Of a DNA stretch of 64,000 nucleotides, positions 656 to 61,555 are shown in pieces (position 1 is the first letter of the stretch; every line of letters begins with the position of its first letter). Under the pieces are notes generated by a model. That model saw nothing but the letters and a program-made list of their open reading frames with translations, made no database searches and had not been told where the DNA came from. Position numbers and translations under genes: made by a program. The stretch comes from a phage, in the sequence record PZ445444.1; one strand, written 5' to 3'.

Positions 656-1072
656 ATGACATTAGAAGATATCATTGTTAAACCTGAGAACTATGACCAA
701 TACAACCTGTCAACTCAATCTGTAGACCTTGGATGCGCCACGGTCAGTGCGTGGCTGGTTAACGGAAAAGAGCTGGATAAATGCTTAGAAGCTCACATGT
801 CTATTAACAAGTTTCTGGATGAAAATACTCACTGGCTTGAGGGTGCAGGCGTATATGCTTCATGGTTGGAGAGTATGGGATTCGACTACCAATCTGAAGA
901 GGGGTGGTGGAGCTATTTAGCTATCTGTCCAGAGACGCTACAATGCTTCATGAAATATTCTGAAGATTTGGAGTACCGGGCGGTGGTTGATAGTGCTATT
1001 GCCCGTTATAGCCGTAAACCTTTTTCCCACGACATTAAAACTGTGGAAGAATTTGTTGAAGTTTTCTGTTGA
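656..1072 (+). CDS. hypothetical protein
   Basis: 138-aa ORF, AAGGAG RBS 8 nt upstream of ATG. Confidence 0.6.
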   Translation: MTLEDIIVKPENYDQYNLSTQSVDLGCATVSAWLVNGKELDKCLEAHMSINKFLDENTHWLEGAGVYASWLESMGFDYQSEEGWWSYLAICPETLQCFMKYSEDLEYRAVVDSAIARYSRKPFSHDIKTVEEFVEVFC

Positions 1073-1168
1073 CACAGATTGAAAGGTGTGCAATTATAAC
1101 TTCATAGAACGGGAGGACGTGATGAACGAAGAAAACTGGGATGTATAACTAACAGGAGGCCACTGCCC

Positions 1169-1366
1169 ATGATTTATCGAATCCGTGTAAGAGAAGATGC
1201 ACCAGGCTGTTACTTTGACTGGCGTGGGTGGTGGTTTATCCACCCAATGGATGGACTCACAGATAGAATGCTGGATGCTGCCCTTTATACAGATACCGAC
1301 ATAGAATATAATCTCTATCTGAAGGACGGTATAGATAACGGCCTGTTTGAAGCAATTCCTGTGTAA
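1169..1366 (+). CDS. hypothetical protein
   Basis: 65-aa ORF, AGGAGG RBS. Confidence 0.5.
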   Translation: MIYRIRVREDAPGCYFDWRGWWFIHPMDGLTDRMLDAALYTDTDIEYNLYLKDGIDNGLFEAIPV

Positions 1367-1434
1367 GAGACTGTGATAGCTATGTTTTATGATCTTCCTG
1401 TAGCACCACCACCTGTTGAACCCGGAGAACTAAG

Positions 1435-1860
1435 ATGATCTATGAAATGCCAAAACTGATTCGTGACGATGCCCAAAACGCCCACACCTTTATCATGGGC
1501 AAGCGCATGGATATTATTTGTCATAAAGATTTCTGGGAAGGTAGTTACTTCACAGAATATTTTGGTAAACTGGATAATGGTCTGCTGATCCAGTTCTACA
1601 CCGATGCGGAAAACAATATCTGCTGGGAGTTCGAAACTGAAGATATCCATAAACTTTTCACCTTCCTAGGTATTAAGGTTGAGGCCAAGTTTGAAGAAGG
1701 CGAGTGCGACGATTGTGGATTCTACGAGGTAACAGATTTCTATCTCCCAAGTGGTGAGAACCTTTACTATGAAAGCCACTTCGGCAACTCAAATATGCCA
1801 CAAGGTTGGGATGAGTTTTTTGAAATTGCGGAAGAGGAGCTGACATACCGTGATTATTGA
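1435..1860 (+). CDS. hypothetical protein
   Basis: 141-aa ORF, GGAG RBS; stop overlaps next start. Confidence 0.6.
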   Translation: MIYEMPKLIRDDAQNAHTFIMGKRMDIICHKDFWEGSYFTEYFGKLDNGLLIQFYTDAENNICWEFETEDIHKLFTFLGIKVEAKFEEGECDDCGFYEVTDFYLPSGENLYYESHFGNSNMPQGWDEFFEIAEEELTYRDY

Positions 1861-2308
1861 TACTGTAGCGGGAGATTTAATCTCCCTTTTTAAGAGCGGT
1901 GCTGGTCACCTGATCCACGGTTGTAACTGCTTTCATACAATGGGTGCAGGCATAGCGAAAGATATTGCCCGTGAGTTCCCTCAAGCACTGGCAGCCGACA
2001 AAGAGACTGCCTATGGTAATCTGGACAAGCTGGGTATGTTTTCTTGTTGGGAGCATTTTGCCAAGAACAGGGTCGTATATGGAATCAACCTGTATACCCA
2101 GTTCTACCCAGGGCCCAATGCTGAATACTTCTCAATAATGAAAGGTTTTGAGCGAGTCAACGAGGTATTCAAAGGTGTGTCATTGCCGTTCTACATTCCT
2201 AAAATTGGATGCGGTATTGGCGGTCTAAAGTGGGAACATGTAGAAGATGTAATTAATCTTGCAACCACAGATATTGATGTGGTTGTAGTAGAGTACAAAA
2301 AGTGTTGA
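1850..2308 (+). CDS. macrodomain protein, TARG1/OARD1/DarG-like ADP-ribosyl hydrolase
   Basis: 152-aa ORF (GTG start overlapping upstream stop); motifs GDL...HGCNCFHTMGAGIA...FP and IPKIGCGIGGLKWEHV match my recollection of human TARG1 (GDLF...HCISEDCRMGAGIA, PRIGCGLDRLQWENV) and the same length. Confidence 0.7.
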   Translation: MIIDTVAGDLISLFKSGAGHLIHGCNCFHTMGAGIAKDIAREFPQALAADKETAYGNLDKLGMFSCWEHFAKNRVVYGINLYTQFYPGPNAEYFSIMKGFERVNEVFKGVSLPFYIPKIGCGIGGLKWEHVEDVINLATTDIDVVVVEYKKC

Positions 2309-2559
2309 CGACCATCTTCTGAGGTGATATAGTTTCCACAACAACTAAGAGAGGAGAGCACTGTGGAGACTAAAATCTTAATTCTTGCTGTGGTAGATAC
2401 AACCGAAGGAGCTATATTCGAATCTGCAGGGGGGTATTTCTACCTACCATACGGAAAAAGAACTTCCGAGCCAAGTAAAGATTCAATCCTCAAGGTGTTC
2501 CCGTGTGCTTTCTGGCTGGAGATTTTGGTATAAGATTGCAGAGGATTTGGGAGAGAATT

Positions 2560-2754
2560 ATGAGAAACAAGAAAGAGCTTTACTCTGGTGAGTGGATCAA
2601 CGATCAACAGGTGGGAGAGGTAACCTGCTTCCGATGTTTTACCAGGTACAATCTTAAAACTGCACCAAAAAGTGTTCCAAAGACTGATGGTTATTACATA
2701 AAAGAACCTCATTGCCCAAAATGTAAATGCCGATTATACTGGAGTAACCTGTAA
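2560..2754 (+). CDS. small zinc-ribbon protein
   Basis: 64-aa ORF from internal ATG with GGGAGAG RBS; CxxC...CxxC pairs. Confidence 0.45.
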   Translation: MRNKKELYSGEWINDQQVGEVTCFRCFTRYNLKTAPKSVPKTDGYYIKEPHCPKCKCRLYWSNL

Positions 2755-2817
2755 AAGATTGACATCTGAAAACTGCAGTGTATAATATATGCATAAACTA
2801 ACAGAGAGTGATGTATT

Positions 2818-3009
2818 ATGGTAATTTTTAACCGGGATGGTATCATAGTTAGACAGCACCCCTTCCTTGAATACTATCAAATTGAGCAATGGTGCTACGG
2901 GGATTGCAGTCACTCCTATGGGCAAAGTTGGGGATATCGTACAGTTTTTGAATCCACAGACCTTGACAAAGTAAGACAGAAAGTTTTAGAACTTATTAAC
3001 AACAAGTGA
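2818..3009 (+). CDS. hypothetical protein
   Basis: 63-aa ORF. Confidence 0.4.
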   Translation: MVIFNRDGIIVRQHPFLEYYQIEQWCYGDCSHSYGQSWGYRTVFESTDLDKVRQKVLELINNK

Positions 3010-3019
3010 GCATCGTGCC

Positions 3020-3352
3020 ATGGTAACATTGGAAAGACGTAAAGCTATCGCCGCCACACTGGCAGACATCTTTTGGGATTGCAACTTAAAAGATACCCGA
3101 AATTGTGGCGCATCTGTAGATGTATTATTCCCACGGCCCACCATTGTTGCAATGGGCAACCTGCTCGATGTGGTATATGGAGCATGGGACAAGGAAGGTG
3201 GATTCTATATCTGGCAACCTGACTACGGGACCTGGAAAGAGGTTAGTGGTTCTGCGGACTTCACTCCTGCAGAGGCTAAAATGGATGGCTGGAAAATCTA
3301 TGTCGGTAACGACATGAAGCTGAAAGGCGAGATTGTTTACTGGTTACCTTAA
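3020..3352 (+). CDS. hypothetical protein
   Basis: 110-aa ORF. Confidence 0.5.
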   Translation: MVTLERRKAIAATLADIFWDCNLKDTRNCGASVDVLFPRPTIVAMGNLLDVVYGAWDKEGGFYIWQPDYGTWKEVSGSADFTPAEAKMDGWKIYVGNDMKLKGEIVYWLP

Positions 3353-3372
3353 GAGAATGCAGGAGATAAGGT

Positions 3373-3618
3373 ATGAACAAAGGGTGGACATTTGTAGACG
3401 GCGTTAAAAACATGCCTCTAGGAAAGTATATTGTAGCCATGGCAGATGAGAATGGCAAGGTGGATTTCGGAGTTTGCGAGGTTGTTCTTGCAGGATCTGG
3501 TGACTATGCTCACAAAACTGGGATAATTAACGGTCATTTCTACTTTGATTACAACCCTGTTGTGGCGTATATGGCTATGCCAGAGTTAGAGCTCCCAAAG
3601 GAGGGTGCAGATGTTTAA
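3373..3618 (+). CDS. hypothetical protein
   Basis: 81-aa ORF, AGGAG RBS. Confidence 0.55.
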   Translation: MNKGWTFVDGVKNMPLGKYIVAMADENGKVDFGVCEVVLAGSGDYAHKTGIINGHFYFDYNPVVAYMAMPELELPKEGADV

Positions 3619-3808
3619 GCTTAAATCTGCATGGAACATCGCTGTGGGGGACGAGATCCGTATCCCAGGTGGAAAGACCATTATGAAGATATCTCGTATC
3701 GAGTACGAAGGTGATCGTGTATTTCATATCTTTGCAGAGGATGGTCGAGAAATTTATATACAGGCAGGCTCTCACATCTATATTCGTAAGAAAGGGGACG
3801 ACAAATGA
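3605..3808 (+). CDS. hypothetical protein
   Basis: 67-aa ORF, AAGGAGG RBS, overlaps upstream stop. Confidence 0.5.
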   Translation: MQMFKLKSAWNIAVGDEIRIPGGKTIMKISRIEYEGDRVFHIFAEDGREIYIQAGSHIYIRKKGDDK

Positions 3809-4134
3809 CAGAGATCATCATTTCAACTGCAGGGTATGTGTTCCTGACAATCATTGCACTGACCATTCTGGTTGTGGTATATGGAATTGTTATTCTCCCT
3901 ATTCTTGAGACAATTAGTTTGTGTCGGTGTTGGAGAAAGGCTTACGGTCCACAGCCGTGGAAGGACTGGCCCCACCTTGTGCACATAGCGTTCTCTTATG
4001 CTTATGATCACGCCAGCAGTGCATGCATAACCGGGTATCACGCCCACAACTGGAGCTGGGAAGGGTTGAGGAAATGGAATGTTACAAAGACCATACCTCT
4101 GCGCATGTACAAACCTAAAAACAAAGACAGCTGA
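3805..4134 (+). CDS. hypothetical membrane protein
   Basis: 109-aa ORF, AGGGG RBS; hydrophobic segment VFLTIIALTILVVVYGIVILPIL. Confidence 0.5.
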   Translation: MTEIIISTAGYVFLTIIALTILVVVYGIVILPILETISLCRCWRKAYGPQPWKDWPHLVHIAFSYAYDHASSACITGYHAHNWSWEGLRKWNVTKTIPLRMYKPKNKDS

Positions 4135-4445
4135 TACTTGAAAATTTCTGGCATATCAAGTGTAAGGAGGATTTCTAAAATGGATTTCCTCCTTTTGATA
4201 TTTCACCGGGCTAGATATTTTAAAATTCTTAGAAAATCAGAAAATGGATCGAAAACTAAAATGGATTTTTCAGAGCAGGCACGACGAGATGAACCACTCA
4301 TCCTATCGTCTGCACCATATTCCAGACCACCATTACAGATTTCCCGCACATGCTCACATCCTTCTACTAGAACTTCCCCCACTTACCCTTGACCTTTTAT
4401 AGTAATAATCCAACCACTACCTTGAAGTTGTGGCGCAGCTTTCCA

Positions 4446-4640
4446 AGTACTCGATCTGTTTTTCGTTTCAAAGATTGAATTTTCTGAAAATTTTTCTCGA
4501 TAAATTTCTCAGTACTCGATCTGTTTTTCGTTTTCTGAATCGGATTTTCTGGAAATCGTTCCGGCTCTCGACCTGAAATTTTTGGGGACGAAATCGATTT
4601 TTCGTTTTCAGAAATGGATTTTTAAAATTTCTATATGGGA
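4446..4640. repeat. degenerate tandem direct repeats (about 65-bp unit, roughly 3 copies)
   Basis: CAGTACTCGATCTGTTTTTCGTTT occurs at 4446 and 4511; recurring TTTTCGTTTTC and GATTTTCTGGAAA-like motifs. Confidence 0.6.
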
Positions 4641-4736
4641 ATATTTTAGTGGATACTATTTTATAGGAAATTGTTACGGAGGGTAATTAGCGTGCTAATT
4701 AAATTTATTAAATGCGAGGAGTTCTCATTTAGAATT

Positions 4737-4950
4737 TTGAATGATAATCATTCTCGTTTGCAGAATAACGGGCAGGCCCGGTGATTGTCTCCCGGCCCCT
4801 ACTGCCCCGGCTTGTTATTATAGTAACACACAGGACAAAGAAAGCAAGAAGTTTTTGCATAAATTTTTAGACGATAATGATAATCGTTCTCATTTCATGC
4901 AGCGCCCATCCCCGGTGGTTGTCTCCCCCGTCACCGGTGCCTGCCGTCCT
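4737..4950. repeat. two diverged ~75-bp direct repeats, each starting with a Fur-box-like sequence and ending in a GC-rich hairpin
   Basis: aATGATAATCATTcTC near 4740 and GATAATGATAATCgTTcTC at 4873-4891 (17/19 to GATAATGATAATCATTATC), each followed by CCGGTG(A/G)TTGTCTCCC. Confidence 0.5.
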
Positions 4951-5157
4951 TTCGATAGGTATATTTTGCCACCTAGCGGGGCCGCTGTCAACACTTTTCA
5001 AAAAAAAAAAAAAATTTCTAACCTGATGCGCTGACCGCTGCAACCTGGCGGGGCCAGCCTGGCAGGGCCTAACTGACCAGGTAGGAGAGAATGAAGGCTT
5101 GCAAACCTGGTGGGCCTATGCTATAGGATAGATAACAATTGAAGAGGAGGTACAAAA

Positions 5158-5334
5158 ATGGAAGGTAATATGATCCCCCTGGAAAATGTAGCTATTAATG
5201 ACGCTGAGGCTATCGCCCTGGTTGAAAAGGCTATGGCGGGAGCGTTGGAACATAAAGAAGAGTACGAAAAAATGATGGTTAACCTGGCAGGGGCGGCGGC
5301 TGGAGAATTCTACCCAAAAAATAATTTTAACTAA
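5158..5334 (+). CDS. hypothetical small protein
   Basis: 58-aa ORF below the ORF-track cut-off; strong GAGGAGG RBS. Confidence 0.4.
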   Translation: MEGNMIPLENVAINDAEAIALVEKAMAGALEHKEEYEKMMVNLAGAAAGEFYPKNNFN

Positions 5335-5419
5335 TGGTTGACAGCTCGGACAGTTCTTGTTATTCTTATCCTCGCAAGGTGAACAACACCACACCAATTA
5401 ACAGAGAGGATAAAAAATC

Positions 5420-5617
5420 ATGAACGCCTACGGAATTAAAGTACGTCGCAACACTCGCCAGGTGGTCACCAATCAAGTGATTTGCCGGGTGGATGTAACC
5501 ATCAACAACGGGCAAGGCCTTTATAAATTTCGTCGCGGTCATAGCTATACCCTGCAACAGCTTAATCGTTGCGCCCTGACAAAAGGTCAGATCAACCACT
5601 GGTTTAATAAAAAATAA
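5420..5617 (+). CDS. hypothetical protein
   Basis: 65-aa ORF, GAGGA RBS. Confidence 0.5.
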   Translation: MNAYGIKVRRNTRQVVTNQVICRVDVTINNGQGLYKFRRGHSYTLQQLNRCALTKGQINHWFNKK

Positions 5618-5681
5618 GTATTGACATATAGTCCGACACCAAATACACTAAAAGCACAAAAGACACTAAGAGGATAAAATC

Positions 5682-6080
5682 ATGAAAACCACTACCTTTA
5701 ATTTTGATAATGCAGACTTTTCTTTTTCTGATGTCAAGAACTGCCGCCGTGATCGTGGATTTTACAAGGCTTATAATCTGGTGGGCCTGGACGATGACAA
5801 TAATTTGCACGAAGTAGCTGAGATCCGGTATTATGCCGCCGCCAGTGGTAACACTCACTACTGCGTGTTTTGGATTCACGACAACAAGAACAATAAGTAC
5901 GGTTATACTGGCGGCAAGGCGAGCGGTCACGGTTACGATAAAGCTAACGCAGCACTTGAGAGCGCATTAAATGCTATGGGGATCACTGCCGACGGCTGGA
6001 TCTACGAAGAAGAGTTTTTGTCGGCACTTGCTGACCACCTGGGCTATAAAAAGCACATTGTGACATGCGCCCACGAATAA
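5682..6080 (+). CDS. hypothetical protein
   Basis: 132-aa ORF, GAGGA RBS, promoter-like TTGACA upstream. Confidence 0.6.
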   Translation: MKTTTFNFDNADFSFSDVKNCRRDRGFYKAYNLVGLDDDNNLHEVAEIRYYAAASGNTHYCVFWIHDNKNNKYGYTGGKASGHGYDKANAALESALNAMGITADGWIYEEEFLSALADHLGYKKHIVTCAHE

Positions 6081-6163
6081 AAATCATTGACACGCTGCAA
6101 AATTTAAGTAAACTAGACACAAAAGGCGGGAATGTTTCCCGCCAGCACAAAGGAAAAAAGATC

Positions 6164-6559
6164 ATGAATAAGAACGTACGCCGCATCATGAACGAACTGG
6201 CAAACGATGAAAAAATTATTGACATGCATTTAGTCAACATTTGCCGCCGTTGTGTAACATATAACAACCGCGCCGCAAAAGCGCGTGAGATGAACGCAAA
6301 AGGCACCTTAAAGCCCTTTCAGGTGGTTGTAAAATCTATAACCAGTGCAGCAGGCCAGGCGCATGACCACAACAACGGGAGCACTAATATTGATCCGTCT
6401 TACGTAATGAAACGGATCCGGACTTGCAAGAATAAAGAGCAGGTGTATAATGTCATAGACTGGTTGGACTCTATGGGCGATGTGGTTTACAATAGGTTTT
6501 CTGCAGCTATCGAGATCCAGCTTGACAGGTTGGACGGTAAAGTACTGAAAACTTACTAA
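6164..6559 (+). CDS. hypothetical protein
   Basis: in-frame ATG with AAAGGA RBS chosen over the track start at 6065; preceded by promoter-like sequence and leader hairpin 6125-6143. Confidence 0.55.
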   Translation: MNKNVRRIMNELANDEKIIDMHLVNICRRCVTYNNRAAKAREMNAKGTLKPFQVVVKSITSAAGQAHDHNNGSTNIDPSYVMKRIRTCKNKEQVYNVIDWLDSMGDVVYNRFSAAIEIQLDRLDGKVLKTY

Positions 6560-6565
6560 GATTAT

Positions 6566-6606
6566 TTTTAGATGGCCTTGACTTCAGGGCCATCAATAAA
6601 GTAAAC
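6566..6606 (+). repeat. conserved intergenic hairpin/promoter-like element, copy 1
   Basis: TTTTTAGATGGCCTTGACTTCAGGGCCATCAATAAAGTAAAC; 7-bp stem GATGGCC/GGCCATC with TTGAC in the loop. Confidence 0.6.
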
Positions 6607-6759
6607 TAATCCCAGTTAAGCGAAAAAGGAGGCTTGAAGATGAGCACTACACGCCAACACACAAAGGTAACGATTATCGTTTGCATCATTGGTTACATCC
6701 TGGCGCAAATGTTGATGGGTAGCGCCAATGATTTCGCAAAATTTTTCTTAGACTTTTAA

Positions 6760-6787
6760 TTGACAAGCTAACTTAAATCAGTATAAT
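6760..6787 (+). promoter_or_regulatory. sigma70-like promoter
   Basis: TTGACA, 16-nt spacer, TATAAT upstream of ORF 6840. Confidence 0.5.
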
Positions 6788-6839
6788 ACTAAGCACATAA
6801 ACGGGAAAACTTCCCAGAACACCAAAAGGAGAAAACATT

Positions 6840-7190
6840 ATGAATACTTCCATCACTATGACCGCCGAAGAAAAAGCCCTGCAGATCGCCGCTCTGAAAA
6901 AACAGATTGCAGAACTTGAAGACAAGATCGACAATTTTGAAATCGACGAAGACAAGTACGACGATAAATATGATGAATGGTTAGACGAGATCTACGGCGA
7001 AATCATGATCGGAAACATTTCTTTTCTTCCGTCGCGTATCCTCAAGGAGCTAGATCCTATCGCTTACCGCTGCGGATTTAGCGACTACATCGACAGCCTG
7101 GATATTGAGGACGATGAAGAATACCAGGAATTACAGACAGAGCTCGAAGAAGTGAAAGAAGAGCTTGCAGAACTGGAAGAAAACGAGTAA
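6840..7190 (+). CDS. hypothetical acidic coiled-coil protein
   Basis: 116-aa ORF, AGGAGA RBS; D/E-rich. Confidence 0.6.
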   Translation: MNTSITMTAEEKALQIAALKKQIAELEDKIDNFEIDEDKYDDKYDEWLDEIYGEIMIGNISFLPSRILKELDPIAYRCGFSDYIDSLDIEDDEEYQELQTELEEVKEELAELEENE

Positions 7191-7195
7191 ATTTA

Positions 7196-7237
7196 TTTTT
7201 AGATGGCCTTGACCCCAGGGCCATCAATAAAGTAAAC
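7196..7237 (+). repeat. conserved intergenic hairpin/promoter-like element, copy 2
   Basis: near-identical to 6566-6606 (one or two substitutions in the loop). Confidence 0.6.
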
Positions 7238-7279
7238 TTTAGACTGTTAACACTTAACCAATACAGAGGAGTTAAAACC

Positions 7280-7525
7280 ATGGCAGCACTAATCACCAAA
7301 TATTATGCCCCTACCAACACCAAAAGCGCCCGTATCATGGTAAAAGGCTTCGGACGTAAAAAGGTGTACACCTGGGATTATGCCTTAGACACGGAAGACA
7401 ACTACACCAACGCAATGACCGATTTTATTAATGAACTAAATAAGCAGATCTTGACAAGTTATAAAGTGACCGATATTGCTTATATAGGTGAAGGCGGGAT
7501 CTGTTTTGTAGGCATTGTGAAATAG
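7280..7525 (+). CDS. hypothetical protein
   Basis: 81-aa ORF, GAGGAG RBS. Confidence 0.55.
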   Translation: MAALITKYYAPTNTKSARIMVKGFGRKKVYTWDYALDTEDNYTNAMTDFINELNKQILTSYKVTDIAYIGEGGICFVGIVK

Positions 7526-7575
7526 TTATTTTTTCGGTGGTCCTGGTTGCAGGGCCATCTATAAAGATAATTTAT
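7525..7575 (+). repeat. diverged variant of the intergenic hairpin element
   Basis: TTATTTTTTCGGTGGTCCTGGTTGCAGGGCCATCTATAAAG, same arrangement with a substituted stem. Confidence 0.4.
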
Positions 7576-7599
7576 TAACACCATGAAAGGAGAAAGTAC

Positions 7600-7953
7600 A
7601 TGATCAGCGGGGCAAGTTTTATTATTGGCGCTATTGCTACGGCTTTAATTGTAAATAAGATCCAGGATAAAAAGGAAAGAGGAAGTACCGCCCTTGCAGA
7701 ATATCCATTTTGGGCATTCAACGATAACGAAGATTATATTATAAAGTATAAAAATAAAGAAGGTGACCAAGTAACACCGCGACCGATCCCGGCTTACAAA
7801 ATGCAGGAAACACTATACCGCCTGGAGGCGGGAGGCGCAAAAATTGTAGACTTTTGGGGATACGACCACACAGATCAGGAAGTTATAAAGCGCCGTATCC
7901 GGGCTATTCAGGCCAATATTGAAGTTAGCAAGGGGGGAATATATGAAGATTAA
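7600..7953 (+). CDS. hypothetical protein with N-terminal membrane anchor
   Basis: 117-aa ORF, AGGAGA RBS; N-terminal hydrophobic helix. Confidence 0.6.
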   Translation: MISGASFIIGAIATALIVNKIQDKKERGSTALAEYPFWAFNDNEDYIIKYKNKEGDQVTPRPIPAYKMQETLYRLEAGGAKIVDFWGYDHTDQEVIKRRIRAIQANIEVSKGGIYED

Positions 7954-8140
7954 TTTTGAGAAGATTGTAAAGCGATCTCATGATTCCGAAGAGCTGCCGG
8001 AACGACGCCAGCGTAACAATAAACTGAATAAGCCAAAAAGATTTGGAAAGATCTGGCGAAATCATTATGATCGTAAATTGCCTGGCCTACTTTTGGAACG
8101 TGAACGACAGGCAGAACGATACCGCCATAAAGACAAATAA
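7943..8140 (+). CDS. hypothetical basic protein
   Basis: 65-aa ORF from ATG with GGGGGGA RBS, overlapping the upstream gene end. Confidence 0.45.
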   Translation: MKINFEKIVKRSHDSEELPERRQRNNKLNKPKRFGKIWRNHYDRKLPGLLLERERQAERYRHKDK

Positions 8141-8146
8141 CAACCA

Positions 8147-8176
8147 ACGCCCCGCCATTGTGCGGGGCTTTTTATT
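8147..8176 (+). terminator. rho-independent terminator
   Basis: GCCCCGC-cattg-GCGGGGC hairpin followed by TTTTTATTT. Confidence 0.7.
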
Positions 8177-8321
8177 TCTATCCTACAAATAGCGCCCCTG
8201 GTTGGCCCTGTAAGCGCCAAAAAGGCCCCACCTATGCAATCGCCCCCCTTTAACCTGAAAACATCGCTTAGGGCCGTTTTATGGCGTTAAAAATATCATT
8301 GACAGTGATTTTATTTAAAGC

Positions 8322-8349
8322 TTGACATCTTAAACAGGTTAGCTATACT
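8322..8349 (+). promoter_or_regulatory. sigma70-like promoter
   Basis: TTGACA, 16 nt, TATACT. Confidence 0.5.
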
Positions 8350-8381
8350 AACCACATCAAAGAGAGAAAGGAGTAAACGCC

Positions 8382-8642
8382 ATGCGTAAATTAAAAAATT
8401 TTGATAAAGTTGATGTTGTCCTGAATAATTTTTACTACTGCAACAACAAGGCCATTTGGTGGCGTGATAGTTCCACCGATAAAGTTAAAGCTCGCTTTCT
8501 CCAAGGGCACTGGCAAGGCCGTCCAGTGATTAAAATACTGGGGCAACTGGTAGCGTTTAAAAATTGCCGCCGTGTTGATGACGTTGAAGAGATCTTGAAC
8601 ATTTTACGCCACAATAATTTAAAAAATAGTGTTGACAAGTAA
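8382..8642 (+). CDS. hypothetical protein
   Basis: 86-aa ORF, AAGGAG RBS. Confidence 0.55.
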   Translation: MRKLKNFDKVDVVLNNFYYCNNKAIWWRDSSTDKVKARFLQGHWQGRPVIKILGQLVAFKNCRRVDDVEEILNILRHNNLKNSVDK

Positions 8643-8659
8643 ATCTCGATAAGTATACT
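8632..8659 (+). promoter_or_regulatory. sigma70-like promoter
   Basis: TTGACA, 16 nt, TATACT; followed by leader hairpin GGCGGGAAAACTTCCCGCC (8670-8688). Confidence 0.5.
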
Positions 8660-8716
8660 TAAACACACAGGCGGGAAAACTTCCCGCCACTAACAAAGAA
8701 AATAGGAGAAAATATC

Positions 8717-9340
8717 ATGACCACCGTTAACATTACCACAGGTTACAATTTATCTTTCGACGTGCTGACCGACGAACAAAAAGAAAAAGCTATTGAAATG
8801 GTCCGCGAAAGAGAAGAACACAGCGGGGATAATTTTTTTGCAGAAAGTGTAATTGAACACTATAAAGAATATGTCTTTCCAGAGTACGGCCTTGAAGATA
8901 CCGAAGTACGTTGGTCCGGCTTTTGGTGTCAAGGCGATGGCGCGTCAATCAGTGCTGAAAACGTGGATTTAGAAAAATTCTTGCGTAAAGTAAAGGCCCT
9001 GACCAAGTTCCGATCAATTCGTCACTTGTTCGGCACAATGCACGATGGCGAGTTATCAGCCAGTGTTGAACGTATCCCGTTTAGCCATTATCATCACGAA
9101 AACACAATAGGAGGGTGCATCGATACTAATTGGCTAGACCTGACCACCAAGCAAGAGGACAAAGTTGAAGAGCTGGAAGAGCTGATCACCGAGACGGTAC
9201 GGGAGCTATCCCGCAAGGTTTACGTAGACCTGGAGGAGGCCTATCTTGAACAGTTTACTACCGAAAACCTGATCGGCCTTATTGAAGCCAATGATTGGCG
9301 GTTTGATGTGGATGAATATGGGGAGATGAGTTTTTCATAA
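8717..9340 (+). CDS. hypothetical acidic protein
   Basis: 207-aa ORF, AGGAGA RBS. Confidence 0.65.
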   Translation: MTTVNITTGYNLSFDVLTDEQKEKAIEMVREREEHSGDNFFAESVIEHYKEYVFPEYGLEDTEVRWSGFWCQGDGASISAENVDLEKFLRKVKALTKFRSIRHLFGTMHDGELSASVERIPFSHYHHENTIGGCIDTNWLDLTTKQEDKVEELEELITETVRELSRKVYVDLEEAYLEQFTTENLIGLIEANDWRFDVDEYGEMSFS

Positions 9341-9429
9341 ATAAAGTGTTGCAATAATCTAAAAACCTGCTATATTAAAAACTCAAGGGGCGAGATGACT
9401 TGCCCCCACAAAACAAAGAGGAAAACATC

Positions 9430-9810
9430 ATGAAAAACACTACTAAAGCTATTGACACCGTTATGTTTAACCTGGTTACATTCCGTGAAGATATGAAAGA
9501 TCTTCCACGTGAAACAGTGTGCGACCATATCGAAAACTATCGCAAACTAATCAAAGAGTTGCCTTTAAAACGTGACCAGTACGCGGCTAACGCTATGCTT
9601 AACGCCATGATCAAAAAGATGATCCAGTGTGATTTAACTCTGGCCTATGATTATGCAGGCGGTCGTTTTGCAGTATACAATCAGCCCGTGCCCGGTATGA
9701 GCACCACCGAAGAATTGCACGCGTTAAATCTGAAACAAGATGTATGGGATAACATGCCCCGCGTGGTGGTGTGGGCAGAAAGCGGAAAGATTTACGGCGA
9801 TAATTTTTAA
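9430..9810 (+). CDS. hypothetical protein
   Basis: 126 aa from ATG with AGAGGAAAACATC leader, preferred over track start 9400. Confidence 0.6.
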   Translation: MKNTTKAIDTVMFNLVTFREDMKDLPRETVCDHIENYRKLIKELPLKRDQYAANAMLNAMIKKMIQCDLTLAYDYAGGRFAVYNQPVPGMSTTEELHALNLKQDVWDNMPRVVVWAESGKIYGDNF

Positions 9811-9874
9811 TCAGGTAACAGGCGGCATATTTGCCGCCTTATTGTTAAACAGAACTGCAAAAGAGGTACATAGA

Positions 9875-10246
9875 ATGGAATTTATTATTTTGGCTGTAGT
9901 AGTTGCCTTGTTCAACGCCTGGATCGCTGGCAAGATGGGTAGATCCGCTTTTTTATGGTTTATTATATCTATTTTCCTGGGGGTGGTTGCAACTATTGTA
10001 CTTGTTATCCTTGCAATTGTTGACAAGGGGAATAATAGAAAGGGTAAAGTATTTTCAGACCTGTACGACGCTCAAACATTTGTCAACGCCTACTACAGCG
10101 ATCTTCCAGTCTCCCTACGTTGCAGCCTTGCACAACAGGTTTTCGATGAAGCTAAAACCAGAGATCACGCCCATGAGATTTGTTTAACTGAGGCGGATCG
10201 CCTATTTGAGAGGAATAGAAAATATGTGGACCAGCCGTTTAAATAA
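9875..10246 (+). CDS. hypothetical membrane protein
   Basis: 123 aa from ATG with AGAGG RBS; two or three predicted TM helices at the N-terminus. Confidence 0.55.
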   Translation: MEFIILAVVVALFNAWIAGKMGRSAFLWFIISIFLGVVATIVLVILAIVDKGNNRKGKVFSDLYDAQTFVNAYYSDLPVSLRCSLAQQVFDEAKTRDHAHEICLTEADRLFERNRKYVDQPFK

Positions 10247-10465
10247 TGCCACGTTAATTAACCCCTTTAGTGAAGATTTGAAGCCAGCCGCCTGGCGGGA
10301 TGGATTCAATAACGAAAGCTTTATTTTCAGGCCTGATCTTAAGGAATTTTATAACAATGGATCGAACAACGACAGAGATAATTTTTCTTGTAATGTGCGT
10401 GGTGATAATACTCCTGGGGGCCATTGCAAACCACGTCACTGCTAACAGGAGGAAAGGGGGAGACG

Positions 10466-10585
10466 ATGACACCTAAGGATAAGCCCCGCACCGATAAGGC
10501 GCGCCGTGTTATGGTATGGCTTGAGATCATCGCCCTTGAAATATTGTTAGGCGTAGGGATGTATTTTATCGCTGTAAGTAATTGA
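10466..10585 (+). CDS. small membrane peptide
   Basis: 39-aa ORF with strong AGGAGGAAAGGGGGAG RBS; C-terminal hydrophobic helix. Confidence 0.35.
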   Translation: MTPKDKPRTDKARRVMVWLEIIALEILLGVGMYFIAVSN

Positions 10586-10588
10586 TAA

Positions 10589-10630
10589 CGGCCCCGATCC
10601 CTGGGGCCTAACTTTTCAAATTTTTTTCTC
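10589..10630 (+). terminator. rho-independent terminator
   Basis: GGCCCCGATCCCTGGGGCC hairpin followed by a T-rich tract. Confidence 0.55.
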
Positions 10631-10725
10631 CCTGAGTGTTGCAATCCGATCCAGAATATGGATAATAACAATCAACGGGGAGACACTCCCCACCGCATAG
10701 ACAAAGTTCCAAAAGGAGAAACAAA

Positions 10726-10927
10726 ATGAGCAACAATATCCGCGTTATTAACTTCAAAAAAGAAGAAAAAAATTGCCGTGCTGATTGACGGTCAAGAAAT
10801 CTTTAAAGGTGATTATGAAGATCATCAAACGGCGATTAGTATCACTCGCGTGATTGGTTACCATAATTTTTACCCTCAAGGCGCTGAGGCAGCAGTAAAA
10901 CGAATTAAAGAGATTGTAGGCCTGTAA
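10726..10927 (+). pseudogene. small ORF interrupted by a +1 frame break at an A7 tract (possible slippage site or homopolymer error)
   Basis: ATG with AAGGAGA RBS; frame 0 stops after 20 codons; removing one A from GAAAAAAATTG gives a continuous 65-codon ORF ending at 10927. Confidence 0.4.
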
Positions 10928-10934
10928 AATTTAT

Positions 10935-10975
10935 TTTTAGATGGCCTTGACTCCAGGGCCATCAATAAAGTAAAT
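10935..10975 (+). repeat. conserved intergenic hairpin/promoter-like element, copy 3
   Basis: TTTTTAGATGGCCTTGACTCCAGGGCCATCAATAAAGTAAA. Confidence 0.6.
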
Positions 10976-11018
10976 TTAAACCCTGTTAAAATAATCAGTG
11001 CAAAAAGGAGTAATGATC

Positions 11019-11318
11019 ATGTTTATCCAGGCTAATAATCTTTATTTCTTTGATGGTCAGATCGTAGACGGCGTGGAGGTGGAAATCACCGGGTGCCCTG
11101 GCGGTCAGGTTATGACTTTTCGGAATAATGCCTTTGATGATTCTCATATCGTTATGAGAATGGAAGTTAGTAAGCTGGATGACAAGAAAACACTCATTGA
11201 TTATTCCGTGAAAGATCATCCAGACTACCACATGATCTATGGTGATTTGTGCATTGTTGACCGTGACAAGGTGGGCGGCATTGTGATCGCTATTGTGAAC
11301 GATGTTTTCTCAAACTAA
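11019..11318 (+). CDS. hypothetical protein
   Basis: 99 aa from ATG 8 nt after AAGGAG. Confidence 0.55.
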   Translation: MFIQANNLYFFDGQIVDGVEVEITGCPGGQVMTFRNNAFDDSHIVMRMEVSKLDDKKTLIDYSVKDHPDYHMIYGDLCIVDRDKVGGIVIAIVNDVFSN

Positions 11319-11335
11319 TTTCAGCAGGTGATTTT

Positions 11336-11686
11336 ATGAAAGTAAAACTATATTACCTTAATGAGCTTAACCCCCTTGCCCAGGTCCGCGCCCTGGCTAA
11401 TACCTTGATTTGTGAGAAATCTGTATATTGTGTTGAGCTTAACTCCATGCGTGAACGTCTCAAAGGTGGTTACTTTGACATCCATGCTGCAATCAACGGC
11501 CTGAATATGGAATTTATCCGCTTACGTAACAGCCGCCAGAATCTGGCAAGAATGGAACAAGATCCGGCCCACCTTCGTAAGCTGGTTATTGAAAATCATC
11601 TAATGTTTAATGCCGATGGTGATTATTACCATTTTCACCGTAAACGCTGGTACCGTAGCGGCAATATAGGAAAGAATGCAAAATAA
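11336..11686 (+). CDS. hypothetical protein
   Basis: 116-aa ORF. Confidence 0.6.
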   Translation: MKVKLYYLNELNPLAQVRALANTLICEKSVYCVELNSMRERLKGGYFDIHAAINGLNMEFIRLRNSRQNLARMEQDPAHLRKLVIENHLMFNADGDYYHFHRKRWYRSGNIGKNAK

Positions 11687-19623: not shown

Positions 19624-19941
19624 TTAACGTTCTACAAAAATACCGTTCAGTTCAATAACCAGGAATTTCTGGTCTTCACTATCGTCACGAGCCAGCACCT
19701 CACAGACGTAACGGTCATCTCCGTCATCATCACAGTCAAATACAAGACTGAGGACTTTATCATGATAAACCTTCGCCACTACCGCCTCGTAAGTATTGCC
19801 GATTGTGAATCCAAGATAATCTCCAATGCATTTGACAACAACATGATCACCAGCATTCAAGTCAATCTTCGTCATTACTGCGCTCCTTGGGTAATAATAC
19901 TGTATGTAAAACTTTAACCAGAGATGTGAATAACGCCCCAA
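19624..19941 (-). CDS. hypothetical protein
   Basis: 105-aa ORF. Confidence 0.6.
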   Translation of the reverse strand: MGRYSHLWLKFYIQYYYPRSAVMTKIDLNAGDHVVVKCIGDYLGFTIGNTYEAVVAKVYHDKVLSLVFDCDDDGDDRYVCEVLARDDSEDQKFLVIELNGIFVER

Positions 19942-36164: not shown

Positions 36165-36976
36165 TGTGATGAATGGAGTCTGCTGTCTCCTCCCTGTGTT
36201 TCCACAGGGCCAGACTATCTCTTACTCTACTTCAATAAGATAATAACCCTTTATTGTGAGATGCTTACCTTCGGCATTTCCTTCGATAGCCCTATGAACG
36301 TTACCTACGTTCAAATTTAAGGCTTTTGCACAGGCATAGAGTGAAGGATATTCACCCACCAAGGTTTTCCCTTTGTATGCCTGCACTTTCCTATAGCACT
36401 TACCTGGACAAAGTCCTGTTCGGAAAGCATGTCTCTTATTATCTTCCGGCAAAACCCACTCTAGGTTAGACGGATGATCATTCAATGTATTGCCATCTTT
36501 ATGATTCACTTCCCAGTTTTCAGGGTCTTCTGGGACATCCGGCAAACAATACAAGGCAACAATCCTTGAGGTTTGGATTCGAATCTTTTTACCTTTGTGG
36601 TTGAAAGAGTACATATAACGGCGTTTAACATGCTTGTTACCTTTTCCATAACCTCCCCACAATATTGGGTGTAGCATTCCACGTTTTCCGTATACGTTTC
36701 CAACCTCATCAATCACATAGTTTGATTCTTCACCATTAAGAATGATCTTTTTCATAGAGCCTCTCCATTTCGAAGTTAGTATTTCAACTAACCCCTACAC
36801 TACTTGGTTCAGAAATGTTTGTCAAGCATCTCTGCCTTTCGTTAGTCGTTACAACCGTTCCAACTCCTGTAAGAACTAGTCACGGGATTGGCATAGCTTT
36901 CGCCTTAGCGTTCCCCGTTAGCCGGATTTACCGACCCCTCTTATGAGGTTAGGAGAGTTTTACAACGGCCAGTTTG
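36165..36976 (-). mobile_element. insertion splitting nrdD: probable group I intron carrying an HNH homing-endonuclease ORF
   Basis: about 810 bp between the two nrdD ORFs; flanks are non-AT-rich and non-coding. Confidence 0.5.
36222..36755 (-). CDS. HNH homing endonuclease
   Basis: 177 aa; HNH motif region NHKDGNTLNDHPSNLEW. Confidence 0.75.
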   Translation of the reverse strand: MKKIILNGEESNYVIDEVGNVYGKRGMLHPILWGGYGKGNKHVKRRYMYSFNHKGKKIRIQTSRIVALYCLPDVPEDPENWEVNHKDGNTLNDHPSNLEWVLPEDNKRHAFRTGLCPGKCYRKVQAYKGKTLVGEYPSLYACAKALNLNVGNVHRAIEGNAEGKHLTIKGYYLIEVE

Positions 36977-58204: not shown

Positions 58205-58278
58205 ACCAGTAAAAACTTAAATATCTGTACTATAAGGATTCGTATGTTTTATGTTCGTCATGGAACGGATACTATTAA

Positions 58279-58361
58279 CTGTCCGTGATACGGACACTAC
58301 TGTCCGTCACGCGGACACATCTGCCCGTAATACGGACACTAACTGTCCGTGATACGGACAC
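58279..58361 (+). repeat. four tandem ~21-bp repeats, each an inverted repeat TGTCCGT-nnn-ACGGACA
   Basis: CTGTCCGTGATACGGACACT / ACTGTCCGTCACGCGGACACAT / CTGCCCGTAATACGGACACT / CTGTCCGTGATACGGACAC. Confidence 0.7.
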
Positions 58362-60742: not shown

Positions 60743-60817
60743 GCCCTGTTAGCTTAGTGGATAAAGCAGCGGCCTTCTAAGCCGTTGACACTGGTTCGAG
60801 TCCAGTACGGGGTGCCA
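60743..60817 (+). tRNA. tRNA-Arg (anticodon TCT)
   Basis: hand-folded cloverleaf: 7-bp acceptor GCCCTGT/ACGGGGT, D stem GCTT/AAGC, anticodon loop CTTCTAA, T loop TTCGAGT, encoded CCA. Confidence 0.75.
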
Positions 60818-60821
60818 AATT

Positions 60822-60908
60822 GGGGAGTTATCCCGTAGAGGTAGCGGTGTAGACTGTAAATCTATTGTCATTGCGACTCGGGTGGTTCGACTCCACCACT
60901 CCCCACCA
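60822..60908 (+). tRNA. tRNA-Tyr (anticodon GTA), long variable arm
   Basis: acceptor GGGGAGT/ACTCCCC, anticodon stem-loop GTAGA-CTGTAAA-TCTAT, T arm GGTGG-TTCGACT-CCACC, CCA. Confidence 0.7.
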
Positions 60909-61022
60909 AATTTATATTTTTAGATGCATAAATAATACAGATAATGGCATTGATATTTATCGTCGTTTATACTAGTCACTAACTGCTCGAAAATCAGTGT
61001 CATTATCAGTATAATTTATAAA

Positions 61023-61113
61023 GGAGGGTAGGGAGCAATGGTGCTCAAGCGGTCTTGAAAACCGTCCCGTTGAGGATGACTCGATGATGGTTCGATTCCA
61101 TTACTCTCCGCCA
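61023..61113 (+). tRNA. tRNA-Ser (anticodon TGA), type II
   Basis: acceptor GGAGGGT/ACTCTCC, anticodon loop CTTGAAA, long variable arm, T loop TTCGATT, CCA. Confidence 0.6.
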
Positions 61114-61211
61114 CATTGTTGACCTTGTAATTAAGCGAAAGCCGGAAGCAGAACCGGATTATCAAATGTTACAGTCGTCATCGCCGACTAGCAACATGGT
61201 CAACATACTGA

Positions 61212-61310
61212 GCTAGGTAAGCCCTTTGGCAAGGGCGAGGATTTTTAATCCTGAAAATAGACGAGGTAGTCGTTGAATACATAGGTGGTTCGATTCCATC
61301 ACCTAGCACC
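61212..61310 (+). tRNA. tRNA-like gene, atypical (99 nt; anticodon loop TTTTTAA suggests TTT/Lys; ~28-nt variable region)
   Basis: acceptor GCTAGGT/ACCTAGC, D arm GCCC-TTTGGCAA-GGGC, 4-bp anticodon stem AGGA/TCCT, T arm GGTGG-TTCGATT-CCATC; CCA not fully encoded. Confidence 0.4.
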
Positions 61311-61315
61311 TTTTT

Positions 61316-61391
61316 GCTGATGTAGCACAATCGGTAGTGCAATTGATTTGTAATCAATAGGTTGTAGGTTCAAGTCCTGCCATCAGCACCA
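61316..61391 (+). tRNA. tRNA-Thr (anticodon TGT)
   Basis: acceptor GCTGATG/CATCAGC, D stem GCAC/GTGC, anticodon arm ATTGA-TTTGTAA-TCAAT, T loop TTCAAGT, CCA. Confidence 0.8.
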
Positions 61392-61392
61392 A

Positions 61393-61467
61393 GGCCCTGT
61401 AGCTGGAAGGTTCAAGCAAGCGACTCATAATCGCCAGACGGTGGTTCAATTCCACCCAGGGCCACCA
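61393..61467 (+). tRNA. tRNA-Met (anticodon CAT; initiator, elongator or Ile-lysidine type not resolved)
   Basis: acceptor GGCCCTG/CAGGGCC, anticodon loop CTCATAA, T arm GGTGG-TTCAATT-CCACC, CCA. Confidence 0.75.
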
Positions 61468-61478
61468 AATAATAAATA

Positions 61479-61555
61479 CTCCGCGTAGCTCAGCTTGGTA
61501 GAGCGCCTGATTTGGGATCAGGAGGTCGAGTGTTCGAATCACTCCGTGGAGACCA
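61479..61555 (+). tRNA. tRNA-Pro (anticodon TGG)
   Basis: acceptor CTCCGCG/CGTGGAG, D arm TAGCTCAGCTTGGTAGAGC, anticodon arm CCTGA-TTTGGGA-TCAGG, T arm GAGTG-TTCGAAT-CACTC, CCA. Confidence 0.8.

Follow-up and report, generated by a model that had tools for sequence, protein, structure and literature searches.

Genomic Setting of the Repeated Elements

We analyzed a 64,000-nucleotide (nt) stretch of phage DNA (sequence record PZ445444.1), referred to in its entirety as the window, and within it a family of four short intergenic elements whose + strand RNA folds into a long hairpin and which we regard as probable RNase III processing signals. The window comes from an rV5-like coliphage (genus Vequintavirus). 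Over positions 6000–11500, where the elements lie, it shares 98% identity with Escherichia phage nom and 92–97% with about 120 phages of this rV5-like group, whose genomes are ~136 kb long. The + strand of positions 1–27000 continues the long leftward early/middle transcription unit of rV5, whose layout we took from the rV5 genome paper (PMC3606486): rIIB, helicase, primase, DNA polymerase and endonuclease VII lie upstream and are followed by many small genes without assigned function. All four elements are located between cistrons in the sense orientation, within operons delimited by sigma-70 promoters and intrinsic terminators; one operon that carries elements runs from the promoter at 6760 to the terminator at 8149–8168. 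A PHROG search placed all eight flanking proteins in PHROGs of no assigned function, and no RNA-binding protein was recognizable among these neighbors.

An earlier note on this DNA, made from its letters alone, had described an intergenic repeat with three nearly identical copies and a diverged fourth, always just after a stop codon, and both parts of that description were confirmed. The 24-nt core GATGGCCTTGACYYCAGGGCCATC occurs exactly three times (6571–6594, 7202–7225 and 10940–10963), each time on the + strand, against 0 occurrences expected from 100 dinucleotide-preserving shuffles. A repeat search returned a four-member, 51-nt family, with members at 6558–6608, 7189–7239 and 10927–10977 sharing 90–100% identity and a diverged member at 7523–7573 with 69% identity. 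All four copies are on the + strand and start at or 1–3 nt past a stop codon (TAA 6557–6559, TAA 7188–7190, TAG 7523–7525 and TAA 10925–10927). Of the three starts given for the near-identical copies, 7196 was exact, while the T-runs of the other two begin at 6565 and 10934, one nucleotide from the positions first reported. We refer to the near-identical copies 1–3 as type A and to the diverged copy 4, at 7523–7573, as type B.

In our searches, the family was confined to one phage genus. BLAST with the element matched about 120 Vequintavirus records, with three copies recovered per record, and nothing beyond them; a BLAST search of phages with the element and its 5.5-kb region found nothing outside Vequintavirus but one unrelated shared gene, and a search of 5,426 E. 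coli genomes gave no match to the element. An exact-pattern scan of IMG/VR with CAGGGCCATCNATAAAG identified two rV5-like contigs only, and 15 other matching loci look like chance 16-mer matches. A covariance model built from the four window copies (the window-copy model) found no fifth copy within the 64-kb window and none in 66 kb of the rest of phage nom (120000–136114 and 1–50000; ~7 kb lay outside the scan). The family thus has four members in all sequence searched, within 4.4 kb. A scan of the whole window against Rfam 15 at the gathering threshold placed only tRNAs above threshold, and an E-value scan of 6400–11200 gave chance-level matches at the elements (23 bits against thresholds of 50–55). 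We found no paper, no curated annotation and no Rfam family describing them.

A Strand-Specific Two-Helix Hairpin

RNA folding gave the + strand RNA of every copy one shared two-helix hairpin of about 20–22 bp. The upper stem is G/C-rich and 10 bp long (GAUGGCCUUG/CAGGGCCAUC in type A, including one U·G pair) and closes a 4-nt loop. It is separated from the lower stem by a 2 × 3 internal loop, 5′ UA and 3′ AAU in type A and UC/UAU in the diverged copy. The lower stem consists of 7–12 A-U or G·U pairs, in which the 5′ U-run pairs with the 3′ AAAGUAAA tract; in DNA letters, the T-run pairs with AAUAAAGUAAA, and the A-rich tract reads AATAAAGTAAA. The copies are listed below with their parts, their flanking open reading frames (ORFs; lengths in amino acids, aa), their scores under the window-copy model and under a second model described further on (the T7-site model), and the RNase III cut predicted by analogy.

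6559..6607, + strand: copy 1 (type A) hairpin; fold −20.7 kcal/mol, z −4.9; window-copy model 79.1 bits; T7-site model 25.5 bits, E 7e-4; lower stem 6559–6568/6598–6607; internal loop UA 6569–6570, AAU 6595–6597; upper stem 6571–6580/6585–6594; loop ACUU 6581–6584; predicted cut 6597/6598; preceded by a 164-aa ORF (stop TAA 6557–6559), followed by a 39-aa ORF from 6640

7188..7241, + strand: copy 2 (type A) hairpin; fold −20.9 kcal/mol, z −4.6; window-copy model 78.3 bits; T7-site model 22.1 bits, E 7e-3; internal loop UA 7200–7201, AAU 7226–7228; upper stem 7202–7211/7216–7225; loop ACCC 7212–7215; predicted cut 7228/7229; preceded by a 116-aa ORF (stop TAA 7188–7190), followed by an 81-aa ORF from 7280

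7524..7572, + strand: copy 4 (type B, diverged) hairpin; fold −22.4 kcal/mol, z −5.8; T7-site model 24.7 bits, E 1e-3; internal loop UC 7534–7535, UAU 7560–7562; upper stem GGUGGUCCUG 7536–7545/CAGGGCCAUC 7550–7559, with two G·U pairs; loop GUUG 7546–7549; predicted cut 7562/7563, after GGCCAUCUAU; preceded by the 81-aa ORF (stop TAG 7523–7525), followed by a 117-aa ORF from 7600

10927..10977, + strand: copy 3 (type A) hairpin; fold −23.6 kcal/mol, z −6.7; window-copy model 83.3 bits; T7-site model 28.8 bits, E 9e-5 (best in the window); internal loop UA 10938–10939, AAU 10964–10966; upper stem 10940–10949/10954–10963; loop ACUC 10950–10953; predicted cut 10966/10967; preceded by stop TAA 10925–10927, followed by a 92-aa ORF from 11040

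Across the four copies, fold energies of the + strand lie between −20.7 and −23.6 kcal/mol and z-scores between −4.6 and −6.7. On the − strand, folding is weaker (−8.1 to −19.2 kcal/mol), and for the diverged copy it does no better than shuffles (z −1.2 at −8.1 kcal/mol), since the G·U pairs of that copy turn into C·A there. The 7-bp palindrome first noticed in the element is therefore the core of a longer, strand-specific RNA structure, of which the 5′ T-run forms one lower-helix arm. The palindrome GATGGCC/GGCCATC is present as described, although the stem comprises 10 bp with one U·G pair rather than 7 bp. Since these 10 bp close a 4-nt loop, only the TTG of the reportedly enclosed TTGAC lies in the stem, and its AC falls in the loop. 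Copy 4 lacks TTGAC, yet it retains the complete fold.

A stable G/C hairpin right after a stop codon is also what an intrinsic (Rho-independent) terminator or attenuator would offer, but we reject this explanation, which is almost certainly wrong, since neither strand carries a 3′ U-run. Past the stem, the + strand reads CAAUAAAG and the − strand reads UAAAAAUAA, and the only U-run is 5′ and pairs with the 3′ A-tract. The earlier note had correctly stated that the element is not a canonical terminator on either strand. Consistent with this, the elements were missing from our terminator scan, the annotated terminators of phages EdH4 and Alma lie elsewhere, and none is given here in the rV5 paper.

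Conservation of the Fold across Vequintavirus

The comparison drew on the orthologous 5–6 kb of 13 other Vequintavirus genomes and on two metagenomic contigs. In all, 61 copies from 17 sources, of which 34 are distinct, entered the alignment. Standard pairs occupied 98.2% of the pair cells, versus 36–56% when the 3′ partners were slid by 1–3 columns, and none of 500 shuffles reached the observed pairing or covariation score. The upper helix was paired in every sequence (100%), and its sole changes were A-U to G·U, C-G to U·G, U·G to C-G and G-C to G·U, which preserve pairing only in + strand RNA (or + strand single-stranded DNA). In the lower helix, both sides had changed at four pairs (U-A/C-G, A-U/U-A and G-C/A-U exchanges). 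Substitutions among the orthologues gather in the second half of the loop (positions 3 and 4), which shows all four bases, while the stems and the internal loop are nearly invariant. The U·G pair below the loop was retained in all 26 distinct type A rows, and the sequence of the type A stem is nearly invariant beyond what pairing alone asks for.

The level of conservation is less informative than its pattern. Mean pairwise diversity in the region is 0.095. In a scan of nucleotide diversity along the whole window, the element cores gave 0.018–0.051, under the mean of 0.094 though not extreme for whole 46-nt windows. The conservation signal is where the changes fall, in the loop and as paired changes; evolution keeps the fold, not the promoter-like hexamers.

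The same alignment bears on an explanation at the DNA level, in which the elements would be recombination or cassette boundaries that shuffle small early genes, comparable to the promoter/stem-loop cassettes of T4-type phages, or hairpins formed in single-stranded + strand DNA. Three copies do bracket single small ORFs, copies 1 and 2 often carry the same loop variant inside one genome, which hints at gene conversion, and G·T pairs are tolerated in single-stranded DNA hairpins too. However, no shuffling was seen at the elements, as gene order and spacing around the copies are identical in 14 of the 14 genomes compared, and such an explanation does not account for the match to RNase III determinants presented below. 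We consider it very improbable.

Promoter-like Sequences within the Elements

The earlier note had put forward as one interpretation a promoter with a built-in operator for a dimeric regulator. In the elements, this would be a weak sigma-70 promoter (TTGACN, 18 bp, TAAACT or TAAATT) in which the palindrome would bind a dimeric DNA-binding regulator. The −35 and −10 hexamers are present in the three type A copies, and TTGAC and TAAAYT are conserved among the orthologues. The −10-like hexamer about 18 bp on was found as TAAACT in two copies and as TAAATT in the third, while the fourth lacks it as such. A credible promoter nearby, at 6087–6114, also uses TAAACT, and the Gotham record labels copies 2 and 3 as promoters, as PhagePromoter output only. 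Nevertheless, the hexamers match the consensus at 9 of 12 positions with a suboptimal 18-bp spacer, a class found 57 times in 14 kb versus 32 times in shuffles, and in the diverged copy no allowed spacing yields a −35, although its whole fold is intact.

The operator part fares no better. The DNA dyad is imperfect, matching at 9 of 10 positions in type A and 8 of 10 in type B, whereas + strand RNA pairs at 10 of 10 positions because of the G·U pairs. Every stem substitution keeps the + strand RNA pairing through G·U and breaks the symmetry of the DNA dyad, and the covariation of the lower helix would be meaningless for a promoter.

The convincing promoters of this region, three consensus sigma-70 promoters at 6087–6114, 6760–6787 and 8632–8659 on the + strand, follow a different design: TTGACA, a 16-bp spacer and a −10 of TAAACT, TATAAT or TATACT, with a near-identical GC hairpin, (G)GCGGGAA-nnn-TTCCCGC(C), 10–17 nt downstream (modules 6087–6143, 6760–6816 and 8632–8688). 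The 5′ hairpin of these modules may protect the transcripts. The elements lack both the 16-bp spacer and the downstream GC hairpin, and they are absent from the 33 promoters listed in the rV5 paper (PMC3606486), which does list the convincing promoters of the region. Given the weak match, the missing −35 of copy 4, the different design of the local promoters and the rV5 list, promoter activity is possible but would be secondary, and a promoter with an operator as the main function of the elements is unsupported and improbable.

A secondary activity of this kind would be compatible with what is seen in phage T7, in which minor E. coli promoters lie beside or inside RNase III hairpins. In the T7 annotation, promoters B (start 1514), C (3113) and E (36836) accompany hairpins R0.5, R1 and R18.5 within the T7 stretches 1424–1514, 3097–3152 and 36813–36870. 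Since these promoters adjoin or overlap the hairpins, promoter-like sequence overlapping an RNase III site has precedent.

The promoter-early stem-loop (PeSL) cassettes of T4-type phages, reportedly described by Arbiol and colleagues in 2010 as strong sigma-70 promoters next to a separate stem-loop, offer another comparison. They resemble the elements in being short repeated regulatory cassettes that lie between small early genes, where the genome is variable, and that join promoter-like sequence to a stem-loop. The promoter-like hexamers of the elements, by contrast, are weak and lie inside the hairpin; the true promoter-plus-hairpin modules of the window, which are reminiscent of PeSL cassettes, stand elsewhere, at 6087–6143, 6760–6816 and 8632–8688.

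Resemblance to the RNase III Sites of Phage T7

The five T7 early RNase III sites (R0.3, R0.5, R1, R1.1 and R1.3) were folded with the same tool as the window copies. Their positions were those reportedly given by Dunn and Studier in 1983, a work that PMC3867540 cites, with cleavage reportedly right after that AAU or UAU. T7 R1 folded into a lower stem, a 2 × 3 internal loop (5′ UA, 3′ AAU), a 9-bp upper stem and a tetraloop, which is the overall plan of the type A copies with an identical internal loop. The upper stems of R1.1 and R0.5 comprise 10 bp and that of R0.3 comprises 9 bp, each followed by UAU, as in the diverged copy. In R1.1, as in type A, a U·G and then a U-A pair stand directly below the loop-closing pair. 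In the window elements and the T7 sites alike, a 9–10-bp upper stem with U·G carries a tetraloop, and an asymmetric internal loop separates it from a lower stem of about 9–10 bp.

The settings are alike as well: in both cases, the hairpins lie in the sense strand between cistrons of polycistronic early mRNA of a virulent coliphage, and the T7 early region carries five such signals in a precursor of ~7000 nt. The window elements differ from the T7 sites in a lower stem that is almost pure A/U, formed from a U-run and an A-run, and in an upstream stop codon that abuts or overlaps the first lower-stem pairs. The window phage is also unlike T7, being a 136-kb myovirus without a T7-like RNA polymerase. 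At the sequence level, only short motifs are shared (GGCC, AAU/UAU and UU/AG). Because the primary sequences are otherwise unrelated, common descent with the T7 sites is not established, and the likeness may just as well reflect convergence on one host enzyme.

The resemblance was quantified in both directions with covariance models. The window-copy model, run over T7 positions 700–6700, gave T7 R1 as its best match (14.9 bits, full length) and R0.3 as its third. The T7-site model, built solely from the five T7 early sites, recovered held-out T7 late sites at 46.1, 46.0, 27.6 and 14.0 bits, at the reported positions of R4.7, R18.5, R6.5 and R3.8. In the window, its top four matches are the four elements (28.8, 25.5, 24.7 and 22.1 bits; E 9e-5 to 7e-3), matched at full length, in register and on the + strand only. 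The fifth match is an ordinary terminator at 17.2 bits. Background scores peaked at 12.3 bits across 66 kb from the rest of the phage genome and at 13 bits across 50 kb from Av-05, a phage of a sister genus.

Av-05 itself carries a hairpin directly after the Av05_0028 stop (19811–19871), with a U-run, a 10-bp G/C stem, an 8-nt loop and an A-run. It comprises about 22 bp (−24.6 kcal/mol), its stem sequence is unrelated, and it shows no strand asymmetry. Its layout is that of the window elements. It was the one weak analogue (16.7 bits) to emerge from a scan of the 50 kb of Av-05, where the T7-site model gave nothing. We treat this hairpin as a lead, not as evidence.

RNase III Determinants and the Proposed Processing

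The hairpins were next compared with the published determinants of E. coli RNase III, with positions counted to the analogy-predicted cut. The enzyme needs at least 11 helix positions from the scissile bond to the tetraloop (PMC1540722); type A provides 10 standard pairs plus an A·A apposition, that is, 11 positions, and type B provides 10 pairs plus a C·U apposition, which natural T7 R1.1 also has there. In the distal box, UA/UG is a positive determinant (PMC1540722), and type A matches it exactly, with U:A and U·G right below the loop-closing pair. In the middle box, where G:C increased reactivity (PMC1540722), type A has C:G and G:C. The canonical proximal box reads GC, AU/UA, AU, AU/UA, and GC/CG blocks binding at position 2 and catalysis at position 4 (PMC1540722). 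Both antideterminants are absent from the elements, which have A:U (type A) or G·U (type B) at position 2 and an A·A (type A) or C·U (type B) mismatch at position 4. The sequence of the tetraloop is irrelevant for the E. coli enzyme (PMC1540722), in agreement with the hypervariable tetraloops of both types. Finally, single-strand cleavage at an internal loop leaves stabilizing 3′ hairpins (PMC3867540), and a 2 × 3 internal loop is present at the target site in all copies, which by analogy would restrict cleavage to the 3′ strand.

The elements thus form a conserved, strand-specific two-turn hairpin between cistrons that fits the T7 RNase III profile and most of the published determinants. By analogy with those characterized sites, we think that they probably act as intercistronic RNase III processing and stabilizer hairpins of the T7 early type in the sense strand of polycistronic early transcripts. 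An RNA processing site had been the second interpretation in the earlier note; the structure, the covariation and the specific match to T7 RNase III signals favor it, and it is probably right.

In the proposed mechanism, host RNase III, a double-strand-specific endonuclease, would bind the two-turn helix, with the UA/UG pairs below the loop acting as the distal box. The internal loop would confine the cut to the 3′ strand, where it would follow AAU (...GGCCAUCAAU^AAAGUAAAC) or, in the diverged copy, UAU. The predicted cuts are at 6597/6598, 7228/7229, 7562/7563 and 10966/10967. The upstream cistron would acquire a stable 3′ hairpin as its new end, shielding it from 3′ exonucleases, and the downstream cistron would begin with a 5′-monophosphate and an A-rich leader, 27–75 nt before its start codon. 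The operon between the promoter at 6760 and the terminator at 8149–8168 would in this way be split into separately stable segments, and cuts at 7228 and 7562 would free a monocistronic mRNA of ~334 nt for the 81-aa ORF. Adjacent small early genes would thereby be uncoupled in both stability and expression.

Several points weigh against this proposal. The T7-site model scores are modest (22–29 bits) and the E-values rough, and the four matches represent only two independent sequence types. The distal box of type B is sub-optimal, with U:A and C:G, the latter replacing U·G. Type A has U:A and G:C at proximal positions 1 and 3, versus the canonical G:C and A:U; genuine T7 R1 is also non-canonical at position 3 (C:G). 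There are just four sites, grouped in 4.4 kb of a 136-kb genome. Copy 1 of Gotham lacks 5 nt in the 3′ arm of the upper stem (near 865–920 of the Gotham stretch compared), and copy 3 of "Campylobacter phage C7", an unverified record, lacks 11 nt of the 3′ lower arm (near 5200–5260 of the C7 stretch compared). As each deletion occurs in a single genome, a single copy seems dispensable; the deletions reflect either dispensable copies or assembly errors. The near-identity of the three type A copies could partly stem from gene conversion rather than selection. A literature search for transcript mapping, transcript ends, cleavage or RNase III in rV5 or Vequintavirus returned nothing relevant.

Intercistronic stabilizer hairpins such as the REP-type 3′ hairpins of bacterial operons can protect the upstream segment from 3′ exonucleases, and the elements resemble them as stable hairpins right after a stop codon inside an operon. 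There is no sequence relation to them, given the lack of any match in the 5,426 E. coli genomes, and a simple barrier would be less specific than the elements, with their two-helix architecture, internal loop and RNase III determinants.

A structured RNA might nonetheless play a role other than RNase III cleavage, either as a passive 3′ exonuclease barrier after cleavage elsewhere or as a site for a double-stranded RNA (dsRNA)-binding protein of phage or host that controls translation or decay of the neighboring cistrons. The RNA structure and the strand specificity, both well supported, agree with such a role as well, and the near-invariant sequence of the type A stem would suit a protein that reads sequence. 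It also speaks for such a role that RNase III is able to bind RNA without cutting it (PMC1540722, PMC3867540). Loop-reading proteins of the boxB/N or coat-protein type are unlikely, because the loop is hypervariable. This explanation leaves the coincidences with T7 unaccounted for, namely, the UA/AAU loop, the UA/UG below the loop, the geometry of 10 bp plus 3 nt and the top-four ranking, and the PHROG search offered no RNA-binding protein among the neighboring genes. We regard it as unlikely, if worth keeping in view.

The promoter-like hexamers and the hairpin might also be two faces of one 57-bp, dual-purpose module: a weak host promoter at the DNA level that re-initiates the next small gene, and an RNase III or dsRNA-binding-protein site at the RNA level, by which read-through transcripts are cut and stabilized. 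If this were true, an unrecognized precedent would exist in T7, where RNase III sites carry the minor promoters B, C and E. Alternatively, a novel phage-encoded RNA-binding protein, and not RNase III, would read the module. These possibilities are improbable.

If RNase III acts on the elements as we propose, part of the early polycistronic mRNA of rV5-like phages would be processed by the host enzyme, like that of T7; these phages are in wide use for phage therapy and for biocontrol of E. coli O157. A second, unrelated coliphage lineage would then have nearly the same hairpin design, probably by convergence on the recognition rules of the enzyme. The kind of element is classical, known from the T7 RNase III signals; that an unrelated lineage of myoviruses has it too, down to the internal loop and the distal box, is, to our knowledge, new. 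The annotation would also be corrected, as most records leave the elements unannotated and at least one labels them promoters from the output of a prediction tool. For RNase III specificity rules, they offer four natural candidate substrates with distal- and proximal-box variants, for which the exact cleavage bonds are predicted.

Additional Observations

The gene directly upstream of copy 3 (window 10726–10927; PHROG 12347), which encodes 66 aa in relatives, is split by a frameshift in the window. From ATG 10726, it reads 20 codons to a stop, and residues 19–66 are encoded in another frame (10778–10927), with two poly-A runs, AAAAAAGAAGAAAAAAA, between the two parts. The split could reflect a sequencing error, a pseudogene or slippage.

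In this region, 17 records named Campylobacter phage (e.g., MG065658 and MG065672) are 93–98% identical to E. coli rV5-like phages, and several are flagged UNVERIFIED. They likely represent mislabeled hosts or contaminating coliphages.

Two further repeats were found elsewhere in the window. At 58276–58361, four tandem units of 21–22 bp each contain the palindrome GTCCGTnnnACGGAC; this array lies ~2.4 kb upstream of a cluster of six tRNA genes (60743–61552) and could be an operator array or iterons. At 4437–4622, three tandem direct repeats of ~65 bp (74–100% identity) with T-rich cores lie amid short ORFs only.

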